NCBI GenBank assembly: GCA_043800535.1
Contig: JAZDMV010000023.1
Location: 27,264-91,263, forward strand
Source: a bacterium
Lineage (GTDB): Bacteria; Patescibacteriota; Minisyncoccia; Portnoybacterales; GWB1-42-6
Direction: 5' to 3'
DNA: 64,000 nucleotides
Part shown: positions 3,556-62,223 of the stretch, one piece after another
How the letters are laid out: the number at the start of each line of letters is the position of its first letter
Position numbering within the stretch: position 1 is the stretch's first letter
Made by a program: the position numbers and the translations under genes
The notes under the pieces: model-generated
What the model was told of the DNA's origin: nothing
Database searches by the model: none
The model's input: the letters and a program-made list of their open reading frames with translations, nothing else

Positions 3556-5226
3556 ATGGATCAACCAACAAAAAAACTCGGATTGACCCTGCTTTTGCTC
3601 ATTTTAGCAATTGCAGTTTTTTTTAGATTCTATAAGCTGGACCAGATCCCGCCCGCCCTTTATCCAGATGTGGCGATTAACGGAACCGACGCGTTAAATG
3701 CCCTGCAAAATGATGATTTCAGAATTTTTTACCCGGCTAACAACGGCCGCGAGGGATTATTTATGAATCTTATAGCGCTCAGCTTTTCTGTTTTTGGCGC
3801 GAGCGTCTGGGCGATAAAGGTCGTAGCGGCGATGTTTGGTACGCTGACGGTGCTAGGCCTTTATTTAATGATCAAAGAAATGTTTAAAAACGGCTCAAAG
3901 AACGGCGAGTATATTGCGTTGCTTTCCGCTTTTTTTATTGCTGTTTCTTTCTGGCACGTCAATTTTTCACGGATCGGCTTCCGCGCTGTTATGGTGCCGT
4001 TTTTCCTCGTCTGGAGTTTATATTTTTTGTTTAAAGCTAGTAACTCGACACCAATACAAGAAATTTCCACGAATGACACGAAAAAAAATCCTCTTATTCC
4101 TTATTTCCTATTTCTTGTTTCTGGTTTATTATTTGGCCTCGGCTTCCATACATACATCGCTTTCCGCGTCGCGCCTCTGGTTTTAGTGCCGATCTTTATT
4201 TTTGACATGATAAAAAACTGGCCGCGGGTTAAGCTGGGCCGCTGGTTTATTTTTGCGTTCGGCATAATTTTGGCCGTCTCGCCACTTGCTTATTATTACT
4301 TAAATAACCCGGCTGACTTTATGGGCCGGGCGGGACAGGTTTCAATTTTTGCCTCTGCCAGCCCCATAAAGGCACTCTTTGACGCGACGCTCAAAACTTT
4401 AGGCCAGTTCGTTTTCCGCGGCGACTATAACTGGCGGCACAATCTTTCGGGCGCGCCGCAGGTGTTCTGGCCGCTCATTCCTTTCTTTTTGCTCGGCCTT
4501 GCTTATTCACTTATTCAAATATTCAAAAAACAAAATTATATTCAAAGATCCTGGGCTTTGCTTTCCTGCCACTGGTCACTCGTTTTTCTCTGGGGAACGA
4601 TGCTTTTACCCTCAATTCTGACCAACGAAGGCCTGCCTCATGCCCTGCGTTCTATCGGCGCAATTCCCGCCACCTTTATTTTTGTGGGTGTGGGCGTTTA
4701 TTTGGCCATTGATTATCTAAATTCAAAACTATTAAAATACGAACATCTTCTTTTTGCTTATAAATACGCGGCCGCCGGGCTGTTTGTCTTGCTTTTGATT
4801 AGCATTGCCGGCTTTTCTTATTACCAGTATTTTATCTACTGGGGCGAGCATCCAGAAACCGAAGGCGCTTTCACTAAAAAATTTGTTGACGAGGCCTTAT
4901 ATCTTAAATCCCTGCCTTCCGCTGTAAAAAAATATGTGGTGGTCAATGAAAACGGCACGGCTGTGCCATATCCTGACGGCATTCCCATGCCTGCCCAGAC
5001 CATAATGTTCCTTACACAAACAAGCCAACCGCCTGTCCAGGTACAGTATATTAAACACAATCAACTGGCGGATTTGGCGCAAATATCTGATCTTAGCTCG
5101 CCCGTCGTTATATTGCCCATGAAATACGACCAAGAAATCTTCCGGCAGCTCTGGAATATGTTTCCGTATTCGCAAACAGAAATAATGGAAGCCAGCGGCT
5201 TCGCTGTTCTAAAAATCAATTTCTAA
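3556..5226 (+). CDS. Polytopic membrane glycosyltransferase of the ArnT/PMT family (GT83/GT39-like).
   Basis: There are 12 or more hydrophobic segments. The N-terminal region YPDVAINGTDALN...NGREGLFMNLIA is typical of ArnT-like undecaprenyl/dolichyl-phosphate-sugar transferases. Confidence 0.65.
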   Translation: MDQPTKKLGLTLLLLILAIAVFFRFYKLDQIPPALYPDVAINGTDALNALQNDDFRIFYPANNGREGLFMNLIALSFSVFGASVWAIKVVAAMFGTLTVLGLYLMIKEMFKNGSKNGEYIALLSAFFIAVSFWHVNFSRIGFRAVMVPFFLVWSLYFLFKASNSTPIQEISTNDTKKNPLIPYFLFLVSGLLFGLGFHTYIAFRVAPLVLVPIFIFDMIKNWPRVKLGRWFIFAFGIILAVSPLAYYYLNNPADFMGRAGQVSIFASASPIKALFDATLKTLGQFVFRGDYNWRHNLSGAPQVFWPLIPFFLLGLAYSLIQIFKKQNYIQRSWALLSCHWSLVFLWGTMLLPSILTNEGLPHALRSIGAIPATFIFVGVGVYLAIDYLNSKLLKYEHLLFAYKYAAAGLFVLLLISIAGFSYYQYFIYWGEHPETEGAFTKKFVDEALYLKSLPSAVKKYVVVNENGTAVPYPDGIPMPAQTIMFLTQTSQPPVQVQYIKHNQLADLAQISDLSSPVVILPMKYDQEIFRQLWNMFPYSQTEIMEASGFAVLKINF

Positions 5227-5344
5227 TTTTTTATTTCTTGCATCTGAAAATTTTGTAAGAAAATTTTCTTTAAAAATCGCGCATGGCGAAAAATTTATAA
5301 GAAAATCGAGACAAGCGAGGCGTGTAGAAAATTGGCGACGGAGC

Positions 5345-5367
5345 CGCGCCGCCGCAACGGCGGCGCG
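5345..5367 (+). other. Perfect GC hairpin in the intergenic region (10-bp stem CGCGCCGCCG / CGGCGGCGCG, loop CAA).
   Basis: Read directly. It is flanked by the repeated TCTTGCATCTGAAAATTTTGYAAGAAAAT motif (5237..5265). Confidence 0.5.
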
Positions 5368-5481
5368 AGTGCGACTTTACGAGCCAATTTTTAGCCGAAC
5401 GAATCCGATTTTCTAAAATTTTTGCGCCCTGCGCGTGGTCTTTTGTTACTTTTCTGCCATCAGAAAAGTAACAATAAAACT

Positions 5482-7641: not shown

Positions 7642-7664
7642 ATGCCCCGCACGGTGCGGGGCAT
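7642..7664 (+). terminator. Intrinsic terminator after the PMT-family gene. It is built on the recurrent CCCCGCACGGTGCGGGG palindrome.
   Basis: ATGCCCCGCAC-g-GTGCGGGGCAT followed by TTTATAATTATTT. Confidence 0.6.
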
Positions 7665-12371: not shown

Positions 12372-12657
12372 AAATATTATGTAAAAAATACTAACTGCGA
12401 ATAAATTAATCTACTCTTGCATCTGAAAATTTTGCAAGAAAATCGCGGCAAGACGAGCGTAGCGAGAAGTTTACGAAGTAATTTTTAGTGAGACAAGCTA
12501 TGATTTTATCAAAATTTTCAGCTGCAAGCAGTCTTTTGGCTACCCCGGCACCAGAACGCCTATGGCGTTCGGTGCGGGGCATGCTTTTCTACTTTACCCC
12601 GTACCGAGCTTGCTCTGGTACTGGGGCTGCCAGAAAAGTAGCTCCTACGGAAAAAAA

Positions 12658-18855: not shown

Positions 18856-18892
18856 GAATTTCTATACTCAATCATTAATCCTTTTTAGACAC

Positions 18893-18972
18893 CCTACTAA
18901 TTTACTAATCTTTTACAAATATTACCAATAATACTAATAAATCCATATTTGCAGTATTTGTAAATTAGTAGA
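18893..18972. repeat. AT-rich palindromic intergenic element, family CCTACnAATTTACTAA...TTAGTAGG (copy 3, diverged).
   Basis: Shares the ACCCTACTAATTTACTAAT...TTTACAAATATTAC...ATTTGTAAATTAGTAG architecture with the elements at 30521..30600 and 32786..32880. Confidence 0.5.
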
Positions 18973-21673: not shown

Positions 21674-21725
21674 ACAAACTCAAAACCATAGCCATAAAAA
21701 TCAAAACTTCAAGCTGTTCTGCGAT

Positions 21726-21756
21726 CTTGACATTTGAGTTTTGACATTTGAACTTT
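21726..21756. promoter_or_regulatory. Tandem TTGACATTTGA(G/A) motif in the holB upstream region.
   Basis: cTTGACATTTGAGTTTTGACATTTGAACTTT. The 16-mer TTGACATTTGAACTTT recurs at 2409..2424. Confidence 0.4.
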
Positions 21757-28384: not shown

Positions 28385-28414
28385 TCCGTGAGCTTTTTGA
28401 CTTTGCAAATTTAA

Positions 28415-28441
28415 AGACCCCGCAGAAATTCTACGGGGTCT
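28415..28441. terminator. Bidirectional intrinsic terminator between convergent genes.
   Basis: AGACCCCG-cagaaattcta-CGGGGTCT with T-runs on both strands. Confidence 0.6.
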
Positions 28442-28443
28442 TT

Positions 28444-30168: not shown

Positions 30169-30516
30169 TTATACTAGCTCAATTATCACCACCGCCGCGG
30201 CATCAGTTGTCCTTTGCCCCAGTTTTATGATTCTTGTATATCCACCAGCTCTTTCTTTGTATTTTGGCGCGACCTCTTTAATTAATTTTGCCACCGCCGG
30301 CTTTGGCAGAAACTTTTCTGCATTTCTTGCGCCTTCAATACCTCCTTTTTTTGCTTTCGTAATCAAACGTTCAACAAACCCGCGCATTTCTTTGGCCCGC
30401 GCTTCGGTCGTTTTTATTTTTCCGTTCATTATTAAATTCGCCGCCAGGCCTTTTAAGAATGCCTTGCGCTTGTCTCTCGTCCTGCCAAATTTTCTGCCTT
30501 TGTTTGCGTGTCTCAC
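30169..30516 (-). CDS. rplQ: 50S ribosomal protein L17 (GTG start).
   Basis: MRHANKGRKFGRTRDKRKA... The first codon is GTG. Confidence 0.85.
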   Translation of the reverse strand: MRHANKGRKFGRTRDKRKAFLKGLAANLIMNGKIKTTEARAKEMRGFVERLITKAKKGGIEGARNAEKFLPKPAVAKLIKEVAPKYKERAGGYTRIIKLGQRTTDAAAVVIIELV

Positions 30517-30520
30517 GTCA

Positions 30521-30600
30521 CCCTACGAATTTACTAATTTCTACAAATATTACGGATATAATATTTGTAAGATTGGTAATGATTCGTAATTTAGTAGGGT
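30521..30600. repeat. AT-rich palindromic intergenic element, family CCCTACGAATTTACTAA...TTAGTAGGG (copy 1).
   Basis: About 85% identical to 32786..32880. It has an internal perfect inverted repeat TACAAATATTA / TAATATTTGTA. Confidence 0.6.
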
Positions 30601-31541
30601 TATTTTAATTCAAAACCGTGCTTCTTCAACGCTTTTTTGATCTCTTTTATACCCTTATCTCCCATGCCCTCGATCTCTTTCAAAGACCCTTCGCTTTTTT
30701 TTGCCAAGCCGCCGAGCGTCTTTATTCCTGTCTCGACCAACGCATTAACTGTCCTGGTTGAAAGCTTTAATTCTTCAATTTTTATTTTAGTTGCTTCATC
30801 GCCCGCTTTTTCATCTTTGACCACGGCTTCTTTTTTTTCTTCTTCCTCCTCGCCTTTTTCCATCTCTAAAAATAGACCGAACTGGTCAACTAAAATTTTC
30901 GCTGCCTGAATAAACGCTCCTTCAGGCGAAATGCTGCCATCTGTTTCTATCTCGATTTTCAGCCGGTTAAAATCCGTTTGCTCGCCCACGCGCATATTCT
31001 CAACCTGAAAATTTGCTTTTGTCACCGGCGTGAAAAATGAGTCAATCGCAATCATTCCTATTTCCAGCTTCTCTTTTCTCCGTTTCTCCACCGGCACAAA
31101 TCCAAGCCCTTTTTCAACTTTTATTTCTATTTCCAGTTCCGCTTTTTTGTCGGATAGGCTTACGATGTGCGCATCTTTGTTTATAACTTCTATTTCAGAA
31201 CTTATTTTAATGTCGCCTGCTTTTACATCTTTCTGCCCCTTAGCCGAAAGAAAAACAGTTATCGGTTCTTCGCCATAATATCTGAATCTTATTTTCTTTA
31301 AATTTAAAATAATCTCAATCGCATCCTCGATCACGCCTGGAATTGTGGAAAATTCGTGCTGGACACCCTTGATTTTAAAACCGGTGGCCGCTGCACCAAC
31401 TAGAGAAGACAAAAGAACACGACGCAACGCATTACCCAACGTTATCCCATAACCAGGGTAACATCCCTCAATTTCAAAAACGGCGCGGTTTCCCTGCTTC
31501 TCAATGACCTTTGGTTTTTGAGGGAGAGGTATGTTTTGCAT
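30600..31541 (-). CDS. rpoA: DNA-directed RNA polymerase subunit alpha.
   Basis: N-terminal domain sequence YGITLGNALRRVLLSS plus a C-terminal alphaCTD. Confidence 0.9.
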   Translation of the reverse strand: MQNIPLPQKPKVIEKQGNRAVFEIEGCYPGYGITLGNALRRVLLSSLVGAAATGFKIKGVQHEFSTIPGVIEDAIEIILNLKKIRFRYYGEEPITVFLSAKGQKDVKAGDIKISSEIEVINKDAHIVSLSDKKAELEIEIKVEKGLGFVPVEKRRKEKLEIGMIAIDSFFTPVTKANFQVENMRVGEQTDFNRLKIEIETDGSISPEGAFIQAAKILVDQFGLFLEMEKGEEEEEKKEAVVKDEKAGDEATKIKIEELKLSTRTVNALVETGIKTLGGLAKKSEGSLKEIEGMGDKGIKEIKKALKKHGFELK

Positions 31542-31637
31542 AAACTCGCCACTAATCCACGAATTGTCACGAATATCACGAATAAAGATTTAATTTATTA
31601 GCGTCATTCGTGTGTCATTTGTGTATTGGTGTCGCTA

Positions 31638-32267
31638 TTATCTTGAGTAAAACTCAACCACGAGAGACGCCGGATTTAAATCACCCAGGTCCTCGGCAGT
31701 TGGAACATTTAAAATTTTACCTTCTAATTTTTCTTTATCCAAAGAGATCCAGGCGGGAGTTTCGTATTTTTTCAATGTAGCCACCAAATCTTTCATCAAG
31801 TTTGATTCTTTTATTCTCGGCCTTAATTTAATTATCTGCCCTTTTTTTGTCTGATAAGAAGGGATGTCTACTCTTTTATCGTCAACTAAAATATGGCCGT
31901 GGTTGACCAGCTGTCGCGCCATTGCCCGCGATTTTGCCCAACCCAGACGGAATACCACGTTATCAAGCCTTGTTTCAAGCCGCCTCATGAAAATTTCGCG
32001 GGTATCTTTCTTTTCGGCTATCGCGTCTCTTACGTATTTGGCGAATTGGCGTTCAAGCACTCCGTAAGTTCTTTTCACCCGCTGTTTTTCCGCCAATTGT
32101 TTTCCGTATTCCGAGCCGCCGCCCCGGCGCTTTCTGCCACCTTTTCCGTGGATTCCCGGCGGATCAGGTCGTTTTACCATGGCGCATTTTTGCCCAAAAC
32201 AACGGTCTCCCTTCAAAAAGAGCTTTCCTCCTGCCCGTCTGCATTTTTTGCATGTTGCGTCTGCCAT
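31638..32267 (-). CDS. rpsD: 30S ribosomal protein S4.
   Basis: An N-terminal zinc-ribbon-like region CKKCRRAG...C is followed by an S4 domain (RLDNVVFRLGWAKSRAMARQLVNHGHI). Confidence 0.9.
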   Translation of the reverse strand: MADATCKKCRRAGGKLFLKGDRCFGQKCAMVKRPDPPGIHGKGGRKRRGGGSEYGKQLAEKQRVKRTYGVLERQFAKYVRDAIAEKKDTREIFMRRLETRLDNVVFRLGWAKSRAMARQLVNHGHILVDDKRVDIPSYQTKKGQIIKLRPRIKESNLMKDLVATLKKYETPAWISLDKEKLEGKILNVPTAEDLGDLNPASLVVEFYSR

Positions 32268-32318
32268 TGTTGTCTGACTTTATTAGAATAAACACTTCCG
32301 TCAAAATGTAACAAGACT

Positions 32319-32780
32319 TTAGACACGCCTAACTTTCGGCGGCCGGCATCCGTTATGCGGAATAGGCGTTACGTCCTTAATCGCTGCAATTTCAAGGCCG
32401 TGCGAGGCAAGCGCCCGGATAGCCGCTTCCCGGCCACTGCCAATTCCTCTCACATAAACCACCACTTCCCTCACTCCCATCTTTTTTACTTTTTCAATCA
32501 CCGCCTCAACAACTTTTGAAGCAGCAAAAGGCGTTGCCTTTTTCGGCCCCTTAAAACCCAAACCGCCTGAGCTTGCCCATCCCAAAACATCGCCAGCCAT
32601 ATCAGTCATGGTCAGCATAGTATTGTTATAACTTGATTTAATATATGCTTTTGCTTTCTCAACCCTTCTGCCCTTCACTTTTTCCACACCCGATACCGCC
32701 TTTTTCTGCGCGGCTGATACTTCCTGTTCTTCCTTTAGGGCTTCTTCTTCGGATTGAGCAATAATTTTTTTCTTTCCCAT
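32319..32780 (-). CDS. rpsK: 30S ribosomal protein S11.
   Basis: C-terminal GCRPPKVRRV. Confidence 0.9.
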   Translation of the reverse strand: MGKKKIIAQSEEEALKEEQEVSAAQKKAVSGVEKVKGRRVEKAKAYIKSSYNNTMLTMTDMAGDVLGWASSGGLGFKGPKKATPFAASKVVEAVIEKVKKMGVREVVVYVRGIGSGREAAIRALASHGLEIAAIKDVTPIPHNGCRPPKVRRV

Positions 32781-32785
32781 GGCGT

Positions 32786-32880
32786 CCTACGAATTCACTA
32801 ATTTTTACATATATTACCTGCCGGCAGACAAACGAATATAATATTTGTAAAATTGGTAATGATTCGTAATTTAGTAGGGT
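32786..32880. repeat. AT-rich palindromic intergenic element, family CCTACGAATTCACTAA...TTAGTAGGG (copy 2).
   Basis: The 3' 45 nt (ATATAATATTTGTAAAATTGGTAATGATTCGTAATTTAGTAGGGT) are nearly identical to the copy at 30521..30600. Confidence 0.6.
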
Positions 32881-40449: not shown

Positions 40450-41802
40450 TTACTGAATTACTCCTCCACCCAATAGTTCACCTTTTTTGCTATAGAACAC
40501 CGCGCTCTGTCCCGGCGTCACCGCCCGCTGGGGCTTGCCGAAAATTACACGCACAGTGTCATTGCGAGCCCCGACGTGAAATCGGGGCGTGGCAATCCTG
40601 TAAATAACAGCCGGACTAGCTTCGCTCTTATATCTTATTTTTATCAAAACTTCCTGCGGCAATTTTGCCTGCCCTCCGTAGCCTTGCCTGCCCGCAGTAG
40701 CTTTAGCGAAGGAGGGGCGGAGGCGGGGCGCTTGCCTGCTTGTCCAATTTATATTGCCCGCCGCCAGTTCTTTGCTATACAGATCTTTTTCATCGTTGCT
40801 GACATATAAAATATTTTTGCGCGTGTCTTTTTTAACCACCCACCACGGCCCCTGGTTCAATGGAATATTTTTACGCTGCCCGATGGTATAAAACGCTAGA
40901 CCCTGATGTTCACCCAAAATTTTACCATCTTTCAATTTGTCATTCCCGCGAAAGCGGGAATCCAGACTGGATACCGGATCAAGTCCGGCATGACACGAAT
41001 TATAATCTACTATTTTTCCTAGCTTCATTTTTATATATTTTTTCAAAAAGCTTTCAATATCGCGCGCCACAAAACAAAGATCAAAGCTCTCGCCCCGCCT
41101 GAAAGACAGTCTCCATTTTTTTGCTAATTTATACACTTCCTCTTTCGTATAGTCGGCCAAAGGAAATAATACGCGACTCAATTGCCTCTGTGTCAACGCA
41201 TACAAAAAATATGACTGATCCTTATCTTTATCCTTGGCCTTAAAAATTGTATACGTGTCATTGCGAGGAGCCCCGCACCGTGCGGGGCGACACGGCAATC
41301 CCAAAATGATATCGCCAACGGCTGTTTGCCTCGGGATTGCTTCGCCCCGACTTACATCGGGGCTCGCAATGACGCTACTTTGTATTTTCGCATAATGCCC
41401 GGTGGCAATATAATCAGCCCCCATGCCGAGCGCTTTTTTGAATAAAAGCCCAAACTTAATTTTTTTATTGCACACAACGCACGGATTTGGCGTTCGCCCG
41501 GCGTCGCTCTCGCGCAAAAAATGATCAACTACTTCTTTTTTAAATTCTTTCCCCAGGCGCAGGATATAAAAAGGGATGTCTAGTTTTGAAGCCACGTCTC
41601 TAGCCGCCTGCTCTGCACCCGCGCTACAGCAAGTATTTGTAGCCGCAAAGCGTGCATTCGGCTCTGCCCAGAAACGCATAAAAACGCCAACGACATCATA
41701 TCCTTGCTTTTTTAATAACGCCGCTGCCACAGAAGAATCAACCCCACCAGACATTGCAACTATTACTTTTCCCTTTGATTTGCGCATATTCTCTTCTATC
41801 AT
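40450..41802 (-). CDS. mnmA: tRNA-specific 2-thiouridylase MnmA carrying four in-frame palindromic-element insertions.
   Basis: VIVAMSGGVDSSVAA PP-loop...GADYIATGHYA...KDQSYFLY...AVTPGQSAVFY. It is about 83 aa longer than E. coli MnmA. The ORF-track start at 41970 is probably too far upstream, and the ATG at 41802 (MIEENMRKSKGKV) follows a terminator. Confidence 0.75.
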   Translation of the reverse strand: MIEENMRKSKGKVIVAMSGGVDSSVAAALLKKQGYDVVGVFMRFWAEPNARFAATNTCCSAGAEQAARDVASKLDIPFYILRLGKEFKKEVVDHFLRESDAGRTPNPCVVCNKKIKFGLLFKKALGMGADYIATGHYAKIQSSVIASPDVSRGEAIPRQTAVGDIILGLPCRPARCGAPRNDTYTIFKAKDKDKDQSYFLYALTQRQLSRVLFPLADYTKEEVYKLAKKWRLSFRRGESFDLCFVARDIESFLKKYIKMKLGKIVDYNSCHAGLDPVSSLDSRFRGNDKLKDGKILGEHQGLAFYTIGQRKNIPLNQGPWWVVKKDTRKNILYVSNDEKDLYSKELAAGNINWTSRQAPRLRPSFAKATAGRQGYGGQAKLPQEVLIKIRYKSEASPAVIYRIATPRFHVGARNDTVRVIFGKPQRAVTPGQSAVFYSKKGELLGGGVIQ

Positions 41803-41843
41803 TTTATTTTTTAGAATAACATCATTTTTGCCAAAAAGAAAAG

Positions 41844-41870
41844 CCCCGGATGAACATTGTTCATCCGGGG
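41844..41870 (-). terminator. Intrinsic terminator after the MYG1-like gene.
   Basis: Perfect 13-bp inverted repeat CCCCGGATGAACA-t-TGTTCATCCGGGG, followed on the minus strand by CTTTTCTTTTTGG. Confidence 0.6.
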
Positions 41871-41884
41871 CCACAAAAAGGGTA

Positions 41885-42979
41885 CTAAGCGGCTTTCTTA
41901 TGATAAAGATTGAACCGCTTATCCCTGCACTTTCTGAGCCCCCAGACATACTTTTCGCACCACCGCCCATTGCACTTTACCTCCTTGCATGGATCAACTA
42001 AGGGTGCACAAGCCAAAGCAATTGCCCCAGCCACTTCCATAAAAGAGAGGGCTGTTGGTTCCTTATCGGGCGCCGAGAAGCTCCCATTAAGAAGCTGACT
42101 CTTGTCCTTTTTGGAATAATACCAAAAATGGCATTTATCGCAATCCTCGGCCACCTCCATCTCCTGCCAGTCTGGCAGAATAATCTTACGTTTTACCAGC
42201 TCCTGCATCCGTACAATCCTTACCACATCAATAAAATTAATTTTCCGCTGAAAATCTGGCGTGGTGAAGATTGCCGTATTGCCAGTGGTGCGCCGCTGAA
42301 TTATAATATCAACCATGTCGCCAAATCTCCAACGGATCCATTTGTTCATCTTACGGCTATCTGATTCAACAACCGCGATTCCAACCGGACCTTTGATAAT
42401 CCGGCCTTTTTCACGAAATTCGTCTTCGCATTTAAAAAAGCGAATTTGGCCGCGCAGATGACGACGAATCCCATCCACCGCCCAATCAAACGCTGCTGGT
42501 AATTCCTTGTCACTCTCGCAATCATCCCAACCATCATTTAAAAGCGAGTGGATATCAAATGGCATACTTCGGCCTTCATCATCCACCCTTTTGCAAAATT
42601 GCAGGATCTTCTGCAGCTCTGGTTTGTGAGAAATCTGTAAAATTTCCGCCGCCAGATGCGCGCAGGAGGAAATACCTTTTCCGTGCTCGTCTAAAATTCC
42701 TCCCCCGATACCGATCGGGAGAATTTTGTCCTTTAATAAGATCTCGTCACCGCTCTTGCCTTTTGCATCCTCTGGCACGCGGCCTTCCGTCCAAAATTCC
42801 ATCCTTGCCTTTTCAACGCCAGGGAAGATTCCTCTGCCCCACGTCACACATTCTACGTATGCCAGAACCTCATCAAAATGCGGCATATTGTGAGTTGCAA
42901 TTTTCTTGACTGGCCACGGGCCAACACCTCCTAACCGCTTCTGCCACCATTTCAACTCTGTGCTCGCCATTGTCGCCAT
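41885..42979 (-). CDS. MYG1/UPF0160-family metal-dependent hydrolase with a Cys-rich C-terminal tail.
   Basis: IATHNMPHFDEVLAYV resembles the MYG1 N-terminal HxxxHxDE motif. The C-terminus is CDKCHFW...CAPLVDPCKEVKCNGRWCEKY. Confidence 0.5.
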   Translation of the reverse strand: MATMASTELKWWQKRLGGVGPWPVKKIATHNMPHFDEVLAYVECVTWGRGIFPGVEKARMEFWTEGRVPEDAKGKSGDEILLKDKILPIGIGGGILDEHGKGISSCAHLAAEILQISHKPELQKILQFCKRVDDEGRSMPFDIHSLLNDGWDDCESDKELPAAFDWAVDGIRRHLRGQIRFFKCEDEFREKGRIIKGPVGIAVVESDSRKMNKWIRWRFGDMVDIIIQRRTTGNTAIFTTPDFQRKINFIDVVRIVRMQELVKRKIILPDWQEMEVAEDCDKCHFWYYSKKDKSQLLNGSFSAPDKEPTALSFMEVAGAIALACAPLVDPCKEVKCNGRWCEKYVWGLRKCRDKRFNLYHKKAA

Positions 42980-44253: not shown

Positions 44254-46068
44254 TTATAATTTTACCGCTTCTCCTTCATTCAAAGCGCCTCCATTCCCAT
44301 TTTCTTCTTTCTTTATCTCTGGCTCTTTCTCTTTCTCCTCCTCGGTTCTATCTCCCAAAACCTCGCTTAACGTTTCGCGAAGTTCGCTTAAATTGACCTC
44401 TTTCTTTTTCCGCCTCATATCAGAAAACTTTGACGGCTCTTTTTTTGCCGCCTCGGCTAAAGAAACCGGCGCGCCCGTGTCTTTTATTAAAACTTCGCCC
44501 GAAGCGCTTGGATTTGACGGCCGCCTCGGCGGGTTAGAATTTTGCGCAAAATTATCCCGTCTTGGAAAATCGCCATGCGGCTGCGGCGTCCCTTTTTGCT
44601 CCTGCGAACGCACCTGAGCCAAACAATCCTGACAATAGACGGGCCTGACGCCGTCGGGCTTAAATTTCAAGCGGATTTTTTTGCCACAGCTACTGCAAAC
44701 CGCATCAAACGAGGGCTCTTCTGGATGAAATTCTGCCTTGTGCGCCGGCGAAATTTCGTGGCTCAAGACCATTTTTCCTTCTTTCTCACTTTCTATCACT
44801 CCGCTCCACTTGGCAATTTTTTCTTCAACTTCCTGGCGGCTCGTGCTGTAGCGTTCCCTAGAGACACGAATTATTGTTTCGCGGTGTGAAATTTCCGGCG
44901 GTGCGATCGGCGGCAGAGTCGTGGCGGAAAAGGGCCGCGAAGCAATGCCGTCTATCATTAATTTCAGATATATCTGGGCAAATCCTAAATTAACAAGGTC
45001 ATTAGCCGAAAACTCGGGCATAAATTCTTTTTCAAGAAATTCAGCATCAGTCGCGCCGACCCGAAAAGTAAGCATGCTCCCCACGTTCCCAAAAACCGCA
45101 TCAGCCACCGGTTCAACCATCTGCGTTATATACTGATGCGCCAAAACCAGATCAAGACGGTATTTCCTGGCTTCTGACAAGATCGCGGCAAAAGATTCTG
45201 TGGCAAAATTCTGAAATTCGTCAACGTAAAGATAAAAATCCTTGCGCTCTTCCTCGGGAACATCAATACGCGACATGGCGGCTAATTGCAGCCGAGTAAT
45301 CAGCATTGCGCCCAGCAGCGCCGAATTATCCTCGCCAATGCGGCCTTTGGACAAATTCATTATAAGAATTTTTTGCGAATCCATCGCCTCTCTGATATTG
45401 ATGGATGACGTTGTCTGGCCGACGATATTACGAATTAATGGACTTGTCAAAAACTGACCTACTTTATTTTGAATAGGCGCCACTGCTTCGGCCATGAATC
45501 TGTCCGGATATTTTGCAAATTCATCAACCCAAAATGCCTTAACAACCGGGTCAGCAATTTTTTCCACCACTTTTTTCCGGTATTCTTTATCGACTAAAAT
45601 TCGCATCGTTCCAAGAAGGGTTGAGCCGGGGTATTCAAGAAGCGCTAAAATCGCGTTGCGCAAAACGTATTCCAGCCGCGGCCCCCAGGATTCGGCCCAC
45701 AACTTTTTAAAAACGCCGACCAGGCCAGAGGCGACAAGGTGCCTGTGTCCAGGGTCAACTTTTTCAATGACATTAAAAGCTATCGGAAAATCGAGGTCCG
45801 CCGGATTAAAATATATGACATCATTCAATCTGTTTGACGGAATAAAATCAAGCATCTTCTCGGCAAATTCGCCGTGCGGGTCCACTATCCCGATCCCTTT
45901 GCCCGACTGGATATCCTGAATTGCCATATTTTCCAAAAGCGTAGTTTTGCCCATGCCAGTTTTACCAATAACATAAAAATGGCGGCGGCGATCGGCCGTT
46001 TTTATTCCGAATTTTACCCGCTGGTCGCGGAAATTCGTTTCAGCAAAAAATGTGATATCGTCAGCCAT
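44254..46068 (-). CDS. P-loop ATPase of the FtsK/HerA/VirB4/VirD4 (AAA_10/TrwB-like) family with a C-terminal CxxC-x17-CxxC zinc ribbon and a disordered acidic tail.
   Basis: KTADRRRHFYVIGKTGMGKTTL Walker A, and IVDPHGEF. It is a clear paralog of the ATPase half of 1..2167. Zinc ribbon: CSSCGKKIRLKFKPDGVRPVYCQDC. Confidence 0.75.
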   Translation of the reverse strand: MADDITFFAETNFRDQRVKFGIKTADRRRHFYVIGKTGMGKTTLLENMAIQDIQSGKGIGIVDPHGEFAEKMLDFIPSNRLNDVIYFNPADLDFPIAFNVIEKVDPGHRHLVASGLVGVFKKLWAESWGPRLEYVLRNAILALLEYPGSTLLGTMRILVDKEYRKKVVEKIADPVVKAFWVDEFAKYPDRFMAEAVAPIQNKVGQFLTSPLIRNIVGQTTSSINIREAMDSQKILIMNLSKGRIGEDNSALLGAMLITRLQLAAMSRIDVPEEERKDFYLYVDEFQNFATESFAAILSEARKYRLDLVLAHQYITQMVEPVADAVFGNVGSMLTFRVGATDAEFLEKEFMPEFSANDLVNLGFAQIYLKLMIDGIASRPFSATTLPPIAPPEISHRETIIRVSRERYSTSRQEVEEKIAKWSGVIESEKEGKMVLSHEISPAHKAEFHPEEPSFDAVCSSCGKKIRLKFKPDGVRPVYCQDCLAQVRSQEQKGTPQPHGDFPRRDNFAQNSNPPRRPSNPSASGEVLIKDTGAPVSLAEAAKKEPSKFSDMRRKKKEVNLSELRETLSEVLGDRTEEEKEKEPEIKKEENGNGGALNEGEAVKL

Positions 46069-46080
46069 AATCAGAATAAA

Positions 46081-46130
46081 GATTTAAGATCTATGATTTA
46101 AGAATAAATTCAAAATTCTTAAATCTATAT
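46081..46130. promoter_or_regulatory. Palindromic element in the 70-nt gap between the membrane-domain gene and the ATPase gene.
   Basis: ATTTAAGAA-taaattcaaaa-TTCTTAAAT (9-bp perfect inverted repeat) plus a GATTTAAGA direct repeat. Confidence 0.35.
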
Positions 46131-46138
46131 TCCCAAAT

Positions 46139-51215: not shown

Positions 51216-51244
51216 GCGGCGCCCCGCACGGTGCGGGGCGCCGC
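51216..51244. repeat. GC-rich palindrome GCGGCGCCCCGCAC-g-GTGCGGGGCGCCGC.
   Basis: The CCCCGCACGGTGCGGGG core recurs at 7645..7661 and, with the central GG replaced by CC, inside the mnmA insertion (41271..41287). Confidence 0.6.
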
Positions 51245-53298: not shown

Positions 53299-53694
53299 CT
53301 ATTCCAGCCCAAACGCTATCAAACCGTATTTTTTGATTTTTTCACGGTAATTCGGAAAGCTATGATAAATTTTTTCCAGTTCTTCTTTCGTTTTTAACCT
53401 CGGATCAATGTCTTTAACCTTATATCTTTTCAGCATTGCAGCTATGGATCTGAAAGTTTGCACCCGCTTAACTTTTTTCTCAAAATTTTTCTTCCCGCAG
53501 ACCAAAACCAGCGTGTCTCCGGCTTTAATGTCCCTGTATTTTTCCGTCCCCGCCCGCGTTTCAATTTTTTTCCGGCCATCGCGGATCGCCTCAAAAATAT
53601 CTTTGTTGACTGCACGGAATTTTAATATCGCAATTTTATTTGCCATAGCGTTTCTTATATTTATTTCAGCGTCCGCAGGAATTACATCAGTCAA
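53299..53694 (-). CDS. ASCH (PUA-like) domain protein.
   Basis: 131 aa beta-barrel pattern ...DIFEAIRDGRKKIETRAG...GDTLVLVCGKK... Confidence 0.45.
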   Translation of the reverse strand: MTDVIPADAEINIRNAMANKIAILKFRAVNKDIFEAIRDGRKKIETRAGTEKYRDIKAGDTLVLVCGKKNFEKKVKRVQTFRSIAAMLKRYKVKDIDPRLKTKEELEKIYHSFPNYREKIKKYGLIAFGLE

Positions 53695-54217
53695 TACTTA
53701 TCTCGCTAAAAATCTGCTCTGATGATTTGTCTGTAGCATCTATAAATTTAATACCGAGTTCATTCGCCTTCCGTTCTATTTCTTCAGCATACCTTAAAGC
53801 ATTCTCAAGCTGATAATCAGTTCTGCCCATAGGGTTTTCCCTACTCGCGTGACGTAAATTTTTGGCAAGAATTTGCGAGTCAACTTTCAAAAAGTATACC
53901 CTATCAAACAAATCGATAACGCTGAAAATATTTCCCGATAATCCAAACAGATAAATTTCTTTCTGCTTGTCGAGGAATTCTTTTAAGAATTTCCTATCCC
54001 AGAGAAATTTGTGATTATCGAGAAATTCTTTACTGGCATCCTTTGGATATTCAACCTTATCTCCTTTCCCATCAAACCAGTCAGATAAACCATCAATTAA
54101 ATCTGCGTCAACAGCGTTAATACCACGCCTTCTTAATTCAGCCGAAACATGAGTCTTGCCCGAACCAGATGAACCAATAATTAATATTTTCTTGCGCATA
54201 TTCTTGTTATCTCCCAT
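53687..54217 (-). CDS. Small P-loop NTPase/kinase (adenylate- or shikimate-kinase-like).
   Basis: KKILIIGSSGSGKTHVS Walker A at the N-terminus. Length is 176 aa. It overlaps the ASCH gene by 8 nt. Confidence 0.55.
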   Translation of the reverse strand: MGDNKNMRKKILIIGSSGSGKTHVSAELRRRGINAVDADLIDGLSDWFDGKGDKVEYPKDASKEFLDNHKFLWDRKFLKEFLDKQKEIYLFGLSGNIFSVIDLFDRVYFLKVDSQILAKNLRHASRENPMGRTDYQLENALRYAEEIERKANELGIKFIDATDKSSEQIFSEISID

Positions 54218-54252
54218 GACATTTTTTGAATTTATTTCTGCGTCCGCAGGAA

Positions 54253-54672
54253 TTATTTGTTCTTCAAGGCATCTTTTACCTGATTTATGTGATGCTCGAA
54301 ATGTGGTTCATCTCCTTCGTCAAATACCCAACTCATATGCGGCCTCTGCCTAATTTTATTTTCGCCGAATTTTTGGATATTATCTTCCAGTATTACCTGC
54401 CATTTTTCCAATTCAGATATAAGTGCCACTGGAGAATAGTTTTCGAACTCACGATAAATTCTGTCATTGAATTTATCGTAATTGTCCGTCGACATAAACC
54501 ATGGTTCCTTTCCTGTTTCAAAAACCTTTTCCAACTCATTAGCACACTCTCTTTCCCATCCGACTAAATGAGATAAAACATCTTTTACCTGCCATTTTTT
54601 CGTTACAGAAACTTTCCAATCTGATTCTTTAAGGGTTTTAAAAAAGGTTATTGTGTCCATGCTATTTTCCAT
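54253..54672 (-). CDS. Hypothetical DinB/YfiT-like protein.
   Basis: Helical bundle with HLVGWE...H pattern. The start was chosen at MENSMD (54672), which abuts the secA stop. Confidence 0.35.
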
Positions 54673-57391
54673 GGCACTTCTTATATTTCTTTCCACTTCC
54701 GCACCAGCAAGGGTCGTTGCGGCCCAGCTTAGCTGGGCTTGAGCCCCGCTGAGCGGGGCGGCCAATGTTTTTGTTACCTGAGGCAGAAGCAGATGGGTCG
54801 GTGCCACGATTTTCGCGCGCTTGCGCCAAAGGCAATTCTTGTCGCGGAGCGTCTTTTGCCAGCACGACTTTATAGATTGATTTTACAATATTTGACTCAA
54901 TCGCCGCCAGCAGATCCCGAAATAATCTGTGGCCTTCGTTTTTGTATTCAACCAGCGGGTCTTTCTGGCCATAAGCTCTTAATCTGACGCTGTCGCGCAG
55001 ATGCTCCATATTATCCAAGTGATCCATCCAGAAAATATCGATCGTCCGCAGGGTTAAAAACTTTTCAATTTCGCGCATGCTTTGCGGCCCGACTTCTTTT
55101 TCTTTCAGTTCATAGGCATTTCTGGCGGCTTCCAGCAAATAATTTATTATCTCATCCCGCTCTTTTAATTCCCGAATTTTTTGCTGGGCGTTAATTGGCA
55201 AAGGAAATATGGAATTTGCCGCTTCATAAATTTCTTTCAGATTCCATTCGCTCGCGTCTCCGGCCGTATTAAATTCCACCAGCCCCCGAACTTCTTTTCC
55301 TATCCATTCGCTGACCTGTTCGCGCAGATCAGCCCGTTTGTCATCGCGAGGAGCCGAGTCATCGAGGTGACGCGGCGATCCCGTGTTATGATTTTCTGCG
55401 GGATTGCTTCGCTCGCCCCCTCCAAGCGGGGTCTCGCTCTCAATGACACGACTTTTGCTTTCCAATATTTCTTTTCTCCATCTATAGATCCTCTCTCTCT
55501 GCTTATTCATCACGTCATCGTAATCAAGGACGTGTTTCCTGACATCAAAATTATATCCCTCGATCTTGGCCTGCGCGCCTTCAATCGCTTTTGATATCAT
55601 TCCGTTTTCTATTGCTTCGTCTTCCGGCATTTTCAAAACTTCCATCATCCGCTTAATTCTGTCCGAGCCAAAAATACGCATTAGATCGTCCTCCAACGAA
55701 ACAAAAAATTGTGAAGAACCCGGGTCGCCTTGACGTCCCGCTCTGCCGCGCAACTGGTTATCAATTCTCCGCGCCTCATGGCGCTCCGTGCCCAAAATAT
55801 GTAGGCCACCTGCCTCCACAACGCCTTCGCCAAGTTTAATATCAACGCCGCGGCCCGCCATATTGGTTGCCACTGTCACCGCGCCTTTTTGCCCTGCCTG
55901 CGCGATGATCTGCGCTTCCTGTTCGTGGTTTTTAGCATTCAAAAGCTGATGCGGAATGCCTTCTTTTTTAAGATAAGCGGATAAAAGTTCGTTTTTTTCT
56001 ATGGAAACAGTGCCCACAAGCACTGGCTGGCCAATTTTGTGTTTCTCTTTTATTTCCCGAACCACGGCGATAAATTTGCCGTTTTCCGTGCGATAGATCC
56101 TGTCACGCAGATCCTGACGCACCATGGGCTTGTTTGTCGGCGCAACCACCACCTCAAGCTTATAAACTTTGAAGAATTCCTCCGCGTTTGTTGCCGCGGT
56201 TCCCGTCATGCCGGCCAATTTATCATACATACGAAAATAATTCTGGAACGTAATTGTGGCCAATGTGCGCGACTCCTGCTGAACTTTAACGCCTTCTTTT
56301 GCCTCGATCGCCTGATGAAGGCCTTCTGAATACCGGCGGCCAAACATCAAACGGCCCGTAAAATCGTCCACAATGATAGCTTCACCATCTTTCACCACAT
56401 AATCCTTATCAAGTTTGAAAAGCACTTCCGCCCGCAATGCCTGTTCTAAATGATGAACATATCTTATGCCGCCTTCATTATAAATATCCATGCCCAGAAT
56501 TTTTTCAACTTTCGCAATGCCTTCCTCGCTTAAGCTAACCGTCCGCATTTTTTCATCAATTGTGTAATCTTCTTCTGCTTTTAATTTGGGCACGATCCTG
56601 GAAAAAGTTTCATATAGTTTTCCGGAATCAGCATCCGGCGCTGAAATAATAAGCGGCGTCCGCGCCTCGTCGATCAAAATTGAATCCACCTCGTCCACTA
56701 TCGCGTAGTGATGGCCTCGCTGAGCCATTTGCGACAGATCCTGCACCATGTTGTCCCGCAGATAATCAAATCCAAATTCGTTATTTGTGCCGTAAGTAAT
56801 ATCTGCCTGATAAGCAAGCGGGCGCGGCACTTCTTTTAAATTTTGCATTTCAACTGTGACTTCGTTTCTGTCCGGGCCGGAATGCGGTTCAAAAAGATAT
56901 GCTTTATCATGCACGACACAGCCGACCGAAACACCGAGTGCCTGATAAATCGGCCCCATCCAGTTGGTGTCACGTTTGGAAAGATAGTCGTTGACAGTGA
57001 CAACGTGCACGCCTTTGCCTTCCAGAGAGTTTAAATAAATTGCCAGGGTTGAGGCCAAAGTTTTGCCTTCGCCTGTTTTCATTTCCGCGATACGCCCCTG
57101 ATGTAAGACAGTCCCACCAAGAAGCTGCACATCAAAATGCCGCTGACCAAGCGTTCGTTTTGAAGCCTCGCGCACCGCGGCAAATGCCTCGGGCAGAAGC
57201 TCGTCCAGCGCCTCACCTCCGCCAACTGGCGGATTCAGGCGCTTACGAAATTCTTCAGTTTTTCCCTTAAGCTGCGGATCAGAAAGCGCCTCAAATTCTT
57301 TTTCCAACCCGTTGATCTTTTCAACCAACGGCATAAGTCTTGAGGCCTGCCGCTCATCCGCACTGCCGAAAATTTTAGATAGAATAGACAT
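54662..57391 (-). CDS. secA: Preprotein translocase ATPase SecA. It carries an in-frame 36-codon palindromic-element insertion and a C-terminal zinc finger.
   Basis: 909 aa. DEAD-like motor, and the C-terminal [15 protein letters not shown]. The segment [38 protein letters not shown] is encoded by 55340..55447. Confidence 0.9.
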
Positions 57392-57569
57392 TGATCAAAA
57401 TTCAGAATTAAGAATTTAGAATAAACTATACTCTTAAATCTTCTTTATCATTCTACTCTCATTTGACAAAAAATCAATCCTTCGACATAGCTTGAAATTA
57501 TGCAAAAATAAAAGGCAGAAAGGCCTTTTTCTATAACAGGCCTCCCTGCCTTATCTCTATAAAAAATCC

Positions 57570-58987: not shown

Positions 58988-60079
58988 TTAGTTTTTATAT
59001 TTAACACGGACAGGAAAAGTACTCCAGTCAAAAACCGGCTTCTTTCTCCTTTTAGCGTCCGTTAATGATTTTTCAAACAATGTCTGGGCCACAAACGGCA
59101 AAGCAAGAGTGATGTCAGCAAAACACTGCACTTTCTTTGCGCCTTGGCGAACCTTGCCCCACGATTGCGCCTCCTCAAACGTGCAGCCCGAAAGCCCGCC
59201 CCAGTGCGGCGCATCCGTTGTTATTTGAATGGCGTAGGAGTGCGGCTTGCGGAAACCTTCTTTTTCAGGGAACGGGGTATCACTTTTTATATATGAAGGG
59301 TCGGCCAAATCACCAGTCACCTCAGCTGTCTGCTGAATATAATTTTTAGGCACGCCGCCGCCAAGATACACAACTCCGGTTTTTTCAGAATTACGAGTCA
59401 AATAAGCGGACTCGGACAAATCCTTGATCGTATCAACAATAAATTTTTTATTATTTTTCATCGCGCTGTACCAGACAGCGATCCCAATGTAGCTGTCGCC
59501 AAAAGAAGGAATAAAAACCGGCACGCCTTGCTTGTAAGCGTTTATTAAAATAGAATCGGGGTCTTTGGAAATTTTTGACAATTCCCTGCCCATAAGTTCC
59601 GTGATTTCACGCGAAGAATAAACCTGTCCGTCTTTTAAATACTGCGATGCCATGCGTTTTATGAAAAATTCTCCGGTCAGAAGATCCATTTCTTCTGCCA
59701 GGATGTCATATATCCTGACAATGCCTTCTTTGAATAACCGCATATCGTCCATCACCGGCTCGCCGATAAAATGTTCCCTGCCCAACGTCTCAAAGGTTTC
59801 ATGAAACATCTGGGCGCCGGTTGAGACAATCGCATCAACAAATCTGTTCTTGACCAGAAACGCGATAATTTTGCGCATTCCGGCAGGAATAATCGCGCCG
59901 GAAATTCCAAGCCAAATAGTGATCTTTTTTTCCTTCATCATTTCCCGCCAAATTTTTGTTATCTCGCCAAGCTTTCTTCCCTGAAATCCAGCCGACGCCA
60001 AATTCTCCACCAGATCCGAGGTTAATTGTTCTTTTATTTCAACAGGTTTTGTTTTGTGTTGTAGAAAATCTTTTTTCAA
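58988..60079 (-). CDS. Deoxyhypusine synthase homolog (DHS-like, NAD-dependent aminobutyl transferase).
   Basis: VYLGGGVPKNY matches the eukaryotic and archaeal DHS ILGGGVVKHH region (catalytic Lys conserved). EAQSWGKVR matches EAVSWGKIR. Confidence 0.75.
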   Translation of the reverse strand: MKKDFLQHKTKPVEIKEQLTSDLVENLASAGFQGRKLGEITKIWREMMKEKKITIWLGISGAIIPAGMRKIIAFLVKNRFVDAIVSTGAQMFHETFETLGREHFIGEPVMDDMRLFKEGIVRIYDILAEEMDLLTGEFFIKRMASQYLKDGQVYSSREITELMGRELSKISKDPDSILINAYKQGVPVFIPSFGDSYIGIAVWYSAMKNNKKFIVDTIKDLSESAYLTRNSEKTGVVYLGGGVPKNYIQQTAEVTGDLADPSYIKSDTPFPEKEGFRKPHSYAIQITTDAPHWGGLSGCTFEEAQSWGKVRQGAKKVQCFADITLALPFVAQTLFEKSLTDAKRRKKPVFDWSTFPVRVKYKN

Positions 60080-60085
60080 AGTTGT

Positions 60086-60168
60086 CTACGGATTACGAAT
60101 TTATTACGGATATACGGATTTACATTATGCATTTTATCTGTATATCTGTACTCATCCGTATTCTGTAG
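60086..60168. repeat. AT-rich palindromic intergenic element, family CTACGGATTAC...GTATTCTGTAG (copy 1).
   Basis: It shares its 5' 11 nt and 3' ~40 nt (TTTTATCTGTATATCTGTA..CATCYGTATTCTGTAG) with 62144..62223. Confidence 0.6.
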
Positions 60169-62027: not shown

Positions 62028-62143
62028 AATTTTTTTTACAATAGATTTTTTTATTTTTAAATATTTATTCCCTATTTATTATATTACGCTTGATTTTAAA
62101 AAATGCAACACTTTTTGCAAAAAAATCGCTGTGGATAAAAAAA

Positions 62144-62223
62144 CTACGGATTACAGAATTGTACTTACATACAGAATAAATTTATTTTTATCTGTATATC
62201 TGTAATTCATCTGTATTCTGTAG
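62144..62223. repeat. AT-rich palindromic intergenic element, family CTACGGATTAC...GTATTCTGTAG (copy 2).
   Basis: See 60086..60168. It lies between the murB stop and the hpf start. Confidence 0.6.

Follow-up and report, generated by a model that had tools for sequence, protein, structure and literature searches.

Intergenic palindromic repeats and miniature inverted-repeat transposable elements, or MITEs, are an established kind of bacterial sequence. The Correia (NEMIS) elements of Neisseria, the ERIC (IRU) elements of enterobacteria and the RUP elements of pneumococcus are AT-rich, non-coding units of ~80-150 bp that are dispersed in several copies; they lie between co-transcribed genes, are present or absent at orthologous sites, and form long hairpins when transcribed. 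In these respects they are matched by a set of repeats in a 64,000-nucleotide stretch of Patescibacteria DNA (contig JAZDMV010000023.1, positions 27,264 to 91,263), hereafter called the window, which is 44% GC and carries almost all of its genes on the minus strand. At every site flagged in an earlier, sequence-only reading of this DNA, and at one or more besides (46074-46132), the spacer between minus-strand genes is occupied by an AT-rich imperfect palindrome of 59-115 nt. Judged by sequence comparison, these elements are probably MITE-like, AT-rich, non-coding foldback repeats of ~60-130 bp that make up a superfamily in a Portnoybacteria-like clade of the Patescibacteria.

Other known repeats offer partial parallels. 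Rickettsia palindromic elements (RPEs), of ~100-150 bp and with consensus sequences of their own, occur as in-frame, translated inserts in a reduced genome. Elements of the present type likewise stand in frame in a GT39 glycosyltransferase gene, in the window and in two relatives (L259 and L260), and vary among orthologues; the likeness is one of behavior and not of sequence membership, most window copies differ in being intergenic and in operon spacers, and we know of no sequence relationship between the two. Foldback elements have inverted arms of short tandem repeats, and are kilobase-scale and eukaryotic. The cyanobacterial tandem heptamer repeats (STRR) are intergenic words able to pair, mostly as simple arrays and not as single mirrored hairpins. 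Both resemble the window elements in that short tandem words pair as hairpins, while organisms, sizes and sequences differ. Transcribed hairpins of the Correia MITEs are cleaved by RNase III (PMC10969869). Correia elements duplicate the dinucleotide TA, whereas the window elements have no target-site duplication; in contrast to Correia, ERIC and RUP, their arms are built from degenerate words of 8-11 nt in tandem instead of a unique terminal inverted repeat and core, no cognate insertion sequence was identified, and no binding modules for integration host factor and no promoter modules were detected in them. Sequence similarity to these three families is not apparent, no formal search having been made. 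The repetitive extragenic palindrome (REP) is GC-rich, measures 20-40 bp, has a stem of 6-13 bp and bears at one of its ends a GTAG tag that is unpaired; a gene for a REP-associated tyrosine transposase, RAYT, goes with it (PMC3733652).

Each element of the window is one long imperfect palindrome, in which three to five degenerate tandem words with the consensus (T/C)AC(G/A/T)(G/A)AT form one arm and their reverse complements form the other (Table 1). The commonest spacing between words is 8 nt, and the distribution tails out to 11 nt; the apex varies between elements, and GC content runs from 17 to 45% against ~44% for the window. In L025 the elements reach 130 nt (three-digit L numbers denote contigs or loci of relatives used for comparison; L1, L2 and L3 are elements of the window). 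The words of Family 1 include TACGAAT, TACTAAT and TACAAAT. Both numbered families end in (CC)CTAC...GTAG(GG), Family 1 with CCCTAC/GTAGGG and Family 2 with CTACGG/CTGTAG, the entire element being an imperfect inverted repeat. On the sense strand, F1a abuts the rpoA stop and leaves 4 nt to the GTG start of rplQ; F1b consists of the F1a arms with a GC-rich apical insert (CTGCCGGCAG). F2a is built from TACGGAT and TACAGAT words, and F2b has T7 (62137-62143) after it on the sense strand, beyond which lies the hpf upstream region. L1 (ACGGATT, ACAAATT and ACAGATT) holds a cluster of five words and folds at -38.8 kcal/mol; L2 combines GCGAAT, ACGAAT and ACGGAT around the apex GCGAATAATTATTCGC, and L3 contains CACGAAT three times and CACTAAT once. 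A weaker hairpin of TTAAGAAT, TTTAGAAT and TTCAGAAT words, in the style of the element at 46074-46132, lies in the spacer after secA (57392-57460).

Table 1. Positions and properties of the palindromic elements, and of one isolated arm, in the window (z values in the order sense, antisense unless stated; E values from the Family 1 profile)
Element	Position	Strand	Location and form	Fold z	nhmmer E
F1a (Family 1 copy a)	30521..30599	-	79-nt foldback filling the rpoA|rplQ spacer	-4.95, -5.43	2.5e-19 (minus strand)
F1b (Family 1 copy b)	32786..32879	-	rpsM|rpsK spacer		9e-19
F1c (Family 1 copy c, diverged)	18888..18972	-	frr|rseP spacer	-3.4, -4.3	1.6e-10
F2a (Family 2 copy a)	60086..60168		83-nt CTAC...GTAG foldback, speA-like|dhys spacer	-5.4, -5.9	
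F2b (Family 2 copy b)	62144..62223		5 nt past the murB stop	-6.4 on both strands	
L1	10817..10931		115-nt word hairpin filling the lysS|serS spacer	-5.5 (sense)	
L2	13111..13207		97-nt word hairpin, pbp2|greA spacer	-3.35, -5.0	
L3	31547..31634		88-nt word hairpin, rpsD|rpoA spacer	-2.7, -3.8	
Additional word hairpin	46074..46132		between two minus-strand genes; TTAAGAAT/AGATTTAAG words	-3.7, -3.8	
Single L3-like arm	4046..4086	+	in frame in the GT39/PMT_2 glycosyltransferase gene (3556-5226)		

The sequence-only reading had described hairpin repeats between minus-strand genes, and all of the sequences that it listed are present at the sites named, including the 11-nt perfect inner inverted repeat of Family 1 (TACAAATATTA/TAATATTTGTA) and the GCGAATAATTATTCGC motif between greA and pbp2. 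Its gene labels agree with the NCBIfam and Pfam assignments (rplQ, rpoA, rpsD, rpsK, rpsM, frr, rseP, lysS, serS, pbp2, greA, hpf and a speA-like decarboxylase), which add murB and dhys, deoxyhypusine synthase. Some boundaries required adjustment: the sites are real, with F1a ending one nucleotide earlier (30600 belongs to the rpoA stop codon) and F1b likewise ending at 32879, and the diverged copy between rseP and frr reaches further than was thought. The terminal inverted repeat attributed to Family 1 is perfect over 6 nt, and the words further in are register-shifted. What had been taken for looser word repeats at three junctions are the full hairpins L1, L2 and L3. The reading did not list the word hairpins at 46074-46132, 57392-57460 and 2168-2440, nor the arm within a gene at 4046-4086. 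The elements have no open reading frame (ORF) of their own. A 120-amino acid ORF on the plus strand (30227-30589) that runs across F1a is spurious, and in L013 (~4600-4660) the gene upstream runs into a half Family 1 element and so gains a C-terminal ..FIRNSYIRRN tail; word elements can thus create or extend ORFs and mislead annotation.

That these palindromes are not due to chance is indicated by their folding and by their words. Fold significance was expressed as z against 200 dinucleotide-preserving shuffles, on both strands. Every element folds to a single long stem-loop, with z from -2.4 to -6.4 in the sense and from -1.3 to -6.5 in the antisense direction; a non-palindromic control, the rpsK|rpsD spacer, gave z = +0.1 and +0.9. 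Intergenic DNA of the window is 5-6 times richer than its coding DNA in words of the form AC[GAT][GA]AT (6.8 versus 1.2 per kb), and seven of the eight clusters of at least three such words are flagged elements. The shuffle z-scores were relied on in place of two other detectors: a strict Watson-Crick palindrome aligner returned only 12 palindromes and missed most elements, and a sliding-window scan of minimum free energy found a "hairpin" nearly everywhere. Rfam 15, at its gathering score, had no match anywhere in the window, and tRNA matches were likewise absent. Uptake-signal sequences were considered for the elements and rejected on anatomy.

Repeated short words bring to mind iteron-like arrays of regulator binding sites, or guide arrays of the TIGR or CRISPR type, and TIGR-Tas systems are known in Parcubacteria (PMC12045711). 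Such an origin is scarcely credible here. The word set differs from element to element within one genome, and the earlier suggestion of protein-binding sites likewise finds no support. The elements are, moreover, single hairpins dispersed among housekeeping genes and form no array. A TIGR array consists of 5-15 tandem ~36-nt units (edge repeat, spacer A, loop repeat, spacer B) beside a gene for the Nop-domain protein Tas (PMC12045711); the window elements are without 36-nt units, without box C/D-type UG...CCA motifs with 8-12-nt spacers, and without an adjacent Nop-domain gene.

The repeats recur as families, both within the window and beyond it. F1a and F1b have different, unrelated genes on either side, yet agree over 46 nt at 98% identity and over 32 nt at 91%; F2a and F2b share 38 nt at 92% together with their left terminus; and F1c matches a Family 1 copy in L025 over 54 nt at 93%. 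An nhmmer profile of Family 1 recovered the three window copies, two in L025, one each in L002 and L003, and a half copy in L013, at differing loci. The copy in L002, whose RpoA is 78% identical, stands at rpsD|rpoA instead of rpoA|rplQ, and those in L003 and L013 are both at non-ribosomal loci. Of the two in L025 one is inverted with respect to transcription, scoring 65 bits on the minus strand and 35 bits on the plus strand (a 30-bit margin). Among the copies recovered in relatives the arms are conserved, while the apex varies through inserted extra words or a small GC-rich hairpin. A scan of contigs from species-representative genomes with RAAATTAGTRAATTCGTARG gave 17 matches, which is about the number roughly estimated for chance; only those in L003 and L013 are genuine word hairpins, the others being coding sequence, many from Bacteroidota. 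Viral contigs scanned for the arms of Families 1 and 2 gave only chance matches in unrelated contexts, with no sign of phage carriage.

The most element-dense ribosomal protein operon in the survey is that of L025, a 4.6-kb contig whose RpoA is 74% identical. Palindromic elements lengthen all six of its spacers between rpsM and rpsI, to 79-214 nt; among them are two Family 1 copies that face opposite ways and a CACGAAT/GGGCAC family that is present twice.

Orthologous junctions in relatives differ in the elements that they hold; the clade is defined here as relatives with RpoA identity of at least 62%. L020 is the nearest relative (about 88% nucleotide identity: 86-90% in rpsD and rpoA, 82% in rplQ), and in it the rpoA|rplQ spacer is replaced from stop to start by an unrelated hairpin of CTGATAAA words, five on one arm and about two on the other. 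Lengths of the rpoA|rplQ junction in the clade are 3, 12, 21, 34, 83, 101, 103, 118, 126, 184, 194 and 240 nt. Junctions of 3-34 nt here are empty. The 3-nt spacer is that of L026, where all of the junctions from rpsM to rplM measure 3-37 nt. At the F1b site, rpsM|rpsK, the spacers of L024, L026 and L034 are just 11-28 nt; at the L3 site, rpsD|rpoA, L002 has its Family 1-type element, and L021 and L026 have spacers of 33-37 nt. L3 itself is kept in L020 with 94% identity over 99 nt, two of the substitutions converting G:U to Watson-Crick pairs. F2a is missing from the orthologous speA|dhys junction in five contigs of close relatives, L254-L258 (SpeA 84-89% identical), and since the 21-nt spacer of L257 aligns with the window flanks, the F2a insert is defined as exactly CTAC...GTAG. 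At murB|hpf, the F2b site, L256 carries another hairpin, CTACGAAAT...CCGTAG, with T6 after it, and L254 has none. In L259 the L1 junction is taken up by a GC-rich terminator and an additional ORF, and the L2 junction an unrelated hairpin of AAATGTA words. The sequence-only reading had looked to comparisons of this sort for polymorphism among relatives, and differences in presence and absence are what they reveal.

Across non-redundant ribosomal protein junctions, 28 of 57 in the clade are at least 60 nt long (median 58 nt) versus 21 of 188 in other Patescibacteria (median 22 nt), and z falls below -2.5 in 19 of the 28 long clade junctions. The start codons that follow F1a and F2a are GTG (rplQ, 30514-30516) and TTG (dhys, 60077-60079), and in L020 and L257, from which these elements are missing, the orthologues have ATG at the same position; the observation is anecdotal and bears on translation start after hairpins. 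Two further repeats occupy junctions of relatives and do not occur in the window. One, at rpsM|rpsK and rpoA|rplQ of L002, L021, L024 and L025, is a multi-hairpin module of 76-240 nt with GC-richer inner stems, TAAAGG(G/A)CTTTGTC...ACATTGGC ATG; the other is a GC-rich family, AAAACCGCAGTC...GCTGCTCACGCTCGCC, found in L021, L022 and L027.

Copies of the word elements also occur inside genes. The isolated arm in the GT39 gene of the window is 76% complementary to an L3 arm over 41 nt and encodes ..TPIQEISTNDTKKN.. within amino acids 158-184. Alignment of 22 orthologues shows a segment of the form ..I[HN]PNDPNKK.. or ..ISTNDTKKN.. that is variably present or absent, and a second loop of the protein carries inserts of 20-60 residues in some orthologues. 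At the DNA level the GT39 inserts are complete in-frame word hairpins (amino acids 110-172 in L259 and 110-152 in L260), and amino acids 192-216 of L260 correspond to a single arm of CACGAAT words.

Copies are placed at different junctions and in more than one genome, in both orientations, and some stand in frame inside a gene; this shows duplicative spread at the DNA level, independent of orientation. The same comparisons show insertion into operon spacers of a few nucleotides and into coding loops, with sharp edges and no detectable duplication, and a turnover of elements much faster than that of the flanking genes. Of the functions and origins that the sequence-only reading had entertained, small MITEs agree best with these observations: the elements are multi-copy within and across genomes, they occur in both orientations, junctions are filled, empty or swapped, and a gene carries in-frame relatives. 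Absence from all other intergenic regions of the genome and from relatives, which it had named as the finding that would undo its own proposal in favor of local chance similarity, is not the case, as the families recur elsewhere, including on contigs of relatives.

A different account is that these are cis-regulatory RNAs of the host (processing or stability hairpins, coupling devices, attenuators) that evolved in place and are kept by selection. Their setting is suggestive. All copies are between co-directional genes, and the base of the stem lies mostly 0-5 nt from the upstream stop and 4-12 nt from the downstream start, so that the stem spans nearly the whole distance. The conservation of L3 in L020, with substitutions that improve pairing, and the T-run that follows murB after both F2b and the L256 element, point in the same direction, as does the 3' end of Family 1: GTAGGG is the best anti-Shine-Dalgarno match in its junctions (-3.8 to -5.8 kcal/mol), and of the four copies scored three have it at a distance of 4-8 nt upstream of the start codon. 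In 57 long junction inserts, however, it is the antisense fold that is slightly favored, by a mean of +1.8 kcal/mol (Wilcoxon p = 0.04), and G:U pairs number 112 in the sense and 146 in the antisense direction; by this G:U asymmetry test, sense-strand RNA selection is absent. Covariation is uninformative because the Family 1 pairs are almost invariant. A consensus scan found no sigma-70-like promoter and no intrinsic terminator inside Family 1 or L3. The design of an intrinsic terminator, in which a U tract comes after a short GC-rich stem on the transcribed strand, is not that of these elements, only F2b having U7, and that after a long AT-rich stem; the clear terminators of this genome are separate GC-rich hairpins, such as those at 28385-28443 and 7645-7661.

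With symmetric folding, no sense advantage and no promoter or terminator consensus, the elements look like DNA palindromes that are incidentally transcribed and do not resemble RNA motifs specific to one strand. Evolution in place cannot produce arms that are nearly identical between unrelated junctions and between genomes, one Family 1 copy is inverted with respect to transcription, orthologous junctions are empty or hold unrelated elements, and the lack of an Rfam match and the in-frame intragenic copies likewise speak against host regulation, which is decidedly unlikely as the explanation of the elements. The role of RNA processing or stability hairpins suggested in the sequence-only reading is plausible as an outcome of co-transcription; as the reason why the elements exist it is unsupported, given fold symmetry and an orientation that is not fixed. 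Attenuators, also suggested there, find no support, and F2b alone is terminator-like.

The edges of the inserts bear on how a MITE-like element of this sort might move. No flanking direct repeat of at least 2 nt was found at the CTAC/GTAG edges of any of the five window copies with these termini, and comparison of the empty L257 junction with the filled one of the window gave no target-site duplication either; the elements depart from MITEs in this, and are like them in size, in their inverted repeats, in copy number (three of Family 1 and two of Family 2 in 64 kb) and in site polymorphism. An absence of duplication, together with CTAC/GTAG exactly at the insert edges of Families 1 and 2 and of elements in several relatives, is reminiscent of REPs and of REPINs, the GTAG-tagged palindromes that a RAYT enzyme of the Y1 HUH class moves through single-stranded hairpins. 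The resemblance extends to the mobile unit, the entire element being one REPIN-like hairpin of ~80-110 nt, and to its location, extragenic between unidirectional genes with occasional intragenic copies (PMC3733652). The construction is nevertheless different. A REPIN is two REPs, and the window elements are not so built: their halves are not palindromic alone, and their stems are AT-rich word arrays of 30-40 bp. In addition, GTAG is here paired with CTAC at the 3' end of each strand, whereas the REP tag is unpaired, and the tag is missing from L1, L2 and L3, three of the eight listed elements. With IS200 TnpA and E. coli RAYT as tblastn queries, neither a Y1 nor a RAYT gene came up in the window or among the Patescibacteria loci of the ~0.95 Mb searched; the only match, a chance one in Bacteroidales, shows that the IS200 query works. 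This negative is weak, the query sequences being approximate. Membership in the REP/REPIN class is quite improbable.

A further alternative dispenses with transposition altogether and would have each element arise de novo at its own junction, by replication slippage and fold-back template switching that organize themselves into quasi-palindromes. It would account well for the internal make-up of the elements, each of which has its own homogeneous set of tandem words at 8-11-nt spacing, and for the over-expansion of one arm, as in the L020 hairpin described above. It is also in keeping with some distant Patescibacteria, in which analogous word hairpins are made from unrelated words, e.g., AAGTTATA, GTTATTG and GAACTAAG. 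It leaves unexplained the Family 1 and 2 copies that share 38-54 nt at 92-98% identity across loci and genomes, the inverted copy, and the sharp CTAC/GTAG edges, and as a complete explanation it is highly improbable.

On the favored reading, that of MITE-like foldback repeats, some enzyme would mobilize the elements in trans, probably acting on single-stranded hairpin DNA. The lack of duplication, combined with the hairpin design, suggests a single-strand, hairpin-recognizing route rather than classical DDE cut-and-paste. Slippage and intra-hairpin (quasi-palindrome) template switching could maintain the symmetry of the arms. The elements may be tolerated in packed operons because the transcribed insert would pair from end to end as a stem of 30-40 bp; the stem would loop the insert out and bring the upstream stop beside the downstream start, and translational coupling would survive. 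The same stems might be RNase III substrates or 3' stabilizers, and F2b with its U7 tract might terminate murB transcription. A bolder form of this idea, possible though unlikely, is that the elements constitute an undescribed "word-built" foldback superfamily that grows by slippage and template switching, moves free of target-site duplication through a single-strand, hairpin-specific enzyme or none, and saturates even ribosomal protein operon junctions and the coding loops of streamlined genomes since the folded transcript keeps stop-start coupling.

It is important to emphasize that several points weigh against the MITE-like interpretation. Its copies were counted in 64 kb only, and an autonomous partner or transposase was found neither in the window nor in the ~0.95 Mb of loci searched; likewise a search of the clade loci, which cover a small part of each genome, gave no convincing 0.7-4-kb segment with matching termini on both sides. 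The filled and empty sites compared come from genomes that are not near-isogenic, so that active transposition and the exact target are presumptive. The word architecture is not a trait of described MITEs, and the interpretation offers no explanation for it. The retention of L3 in L020, unlike the fate of neighboring spacers, could reflect host selection on that element. Finally, translational coupling and RNase III processing are plausible proposals only, and the Shine-Dalgarno comparison gave no signal: use of such sequences in the ribosomal protein operon is weak overall and equal in short and long spacers (means of -1.7 and -2.0 kcal/mol, respectively).

Other repeats were noticed in the window. 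The minus-strand mnmA gene (40450-41970) encodes an MnmA protein of 506 amino acids, against the usual ~360, with several peptides (VIASPDVSRGEAI, ARCGAPRNDT, CHAGLDPVSSLDSRFRGNDK, RLRPSFAKATAGRQGYGGQAK and IATPRFHVGARNDT) that lie in frame and are characteristic of palindromic repeats rich in GC; inverted 23-mers lie at 40555-40577 and 41354-41376, and a palindrome at 41271-41287. These inserts point to a second, GC-rich class of palindromic element, in frame in coding DNA. The palindrome is one of three copies of a perfect 17-nt sequence, CCCCGCAC(G/C)GTGCGGGG, the others being at 7645-7661 and 51222-51238, with a half copy at ~12572. Two of the copies are terminator-like and intergenic and the third is the one in mnmA; the sequence is REP-like and GC-rich, and distinct from the AT-rich word hairpins. 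A 273-nt intergenic foldback at 2168-2440 has outer arms of AAATCC/AAATGTC words (AAAAATCCAAATGTCAAAATCC ... GATTTGACATTTGAACTTTGGATTTTGGATTTTT) around a GC-rich core, and this word class appears again at 21700-21756, several times in L075 (RpoA 45% identical), and also in L021 and L002. A 29-nt module, CTTGCATCTGAAAATTTTG(T/C)AAGAAAAT, is common to 5236-5264 and 12415-12443 with 97% identity; its hosts are long intergenic regions (5227-5421 and 12372-12657), each with GC-rich hairpins, and it looks like another repeated intergenic family. Three tandem minus-strand ORFs of 131-184 amino acids at 53299-54807 share 56 nt at 66-73% identity at their starts, which suggests paralogous small genes. 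Two genes for DUF87/TrwB-like ATPases (1-2167 and 44254-46068) have in common 151 nt at 75% identity (76-226 versus 45132-45282).

Genomes of the Candidate Phyla Radiation (CPR), or Patescibacteria, are of ~1 Mb and densely packed, and are usually called streamlined; the operon from rpsM to rplM is among the most conserved and most tightly coupled in bacteria. Half of the clade spacers in rpsM-rpsK-rpsD-rpoA-rplQ-rplM nevertheless carry structured inserts of 60-240 nt that differ between close relatives. As a kind, these are classed with the bacterial intergenic palindromic repeats or MITEs already known; notable are the word-built arms, the lack of target-site duplication, the density in the ribosomal protein operon of a streamlined CPR lineage, and the in-frame copies. 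Nothing of this sort in CPR bacteria came to light in full-text literature searches, nor is the phylum mentioned in a review of prokaryotic MITEs from 2024 (PMC10969869). If the reading given here is correct, the elements would provide a natural experiment on translational coupling and operon mRNA processing with long hairpins, and a fast-evolving marker with which uncultured CPR bacteria could be typed at the strain level. They would also be a source of annotation artefacts, among them spurious ORFs such as the one across F1a, "hypothetical" peptides of the type ..TNDTNKK.., and domain models that fall below threshold across inserts. For a phylum whose mobile-element biology is almost unknown, they would offer a lead to a route of mobilization free of duplication.

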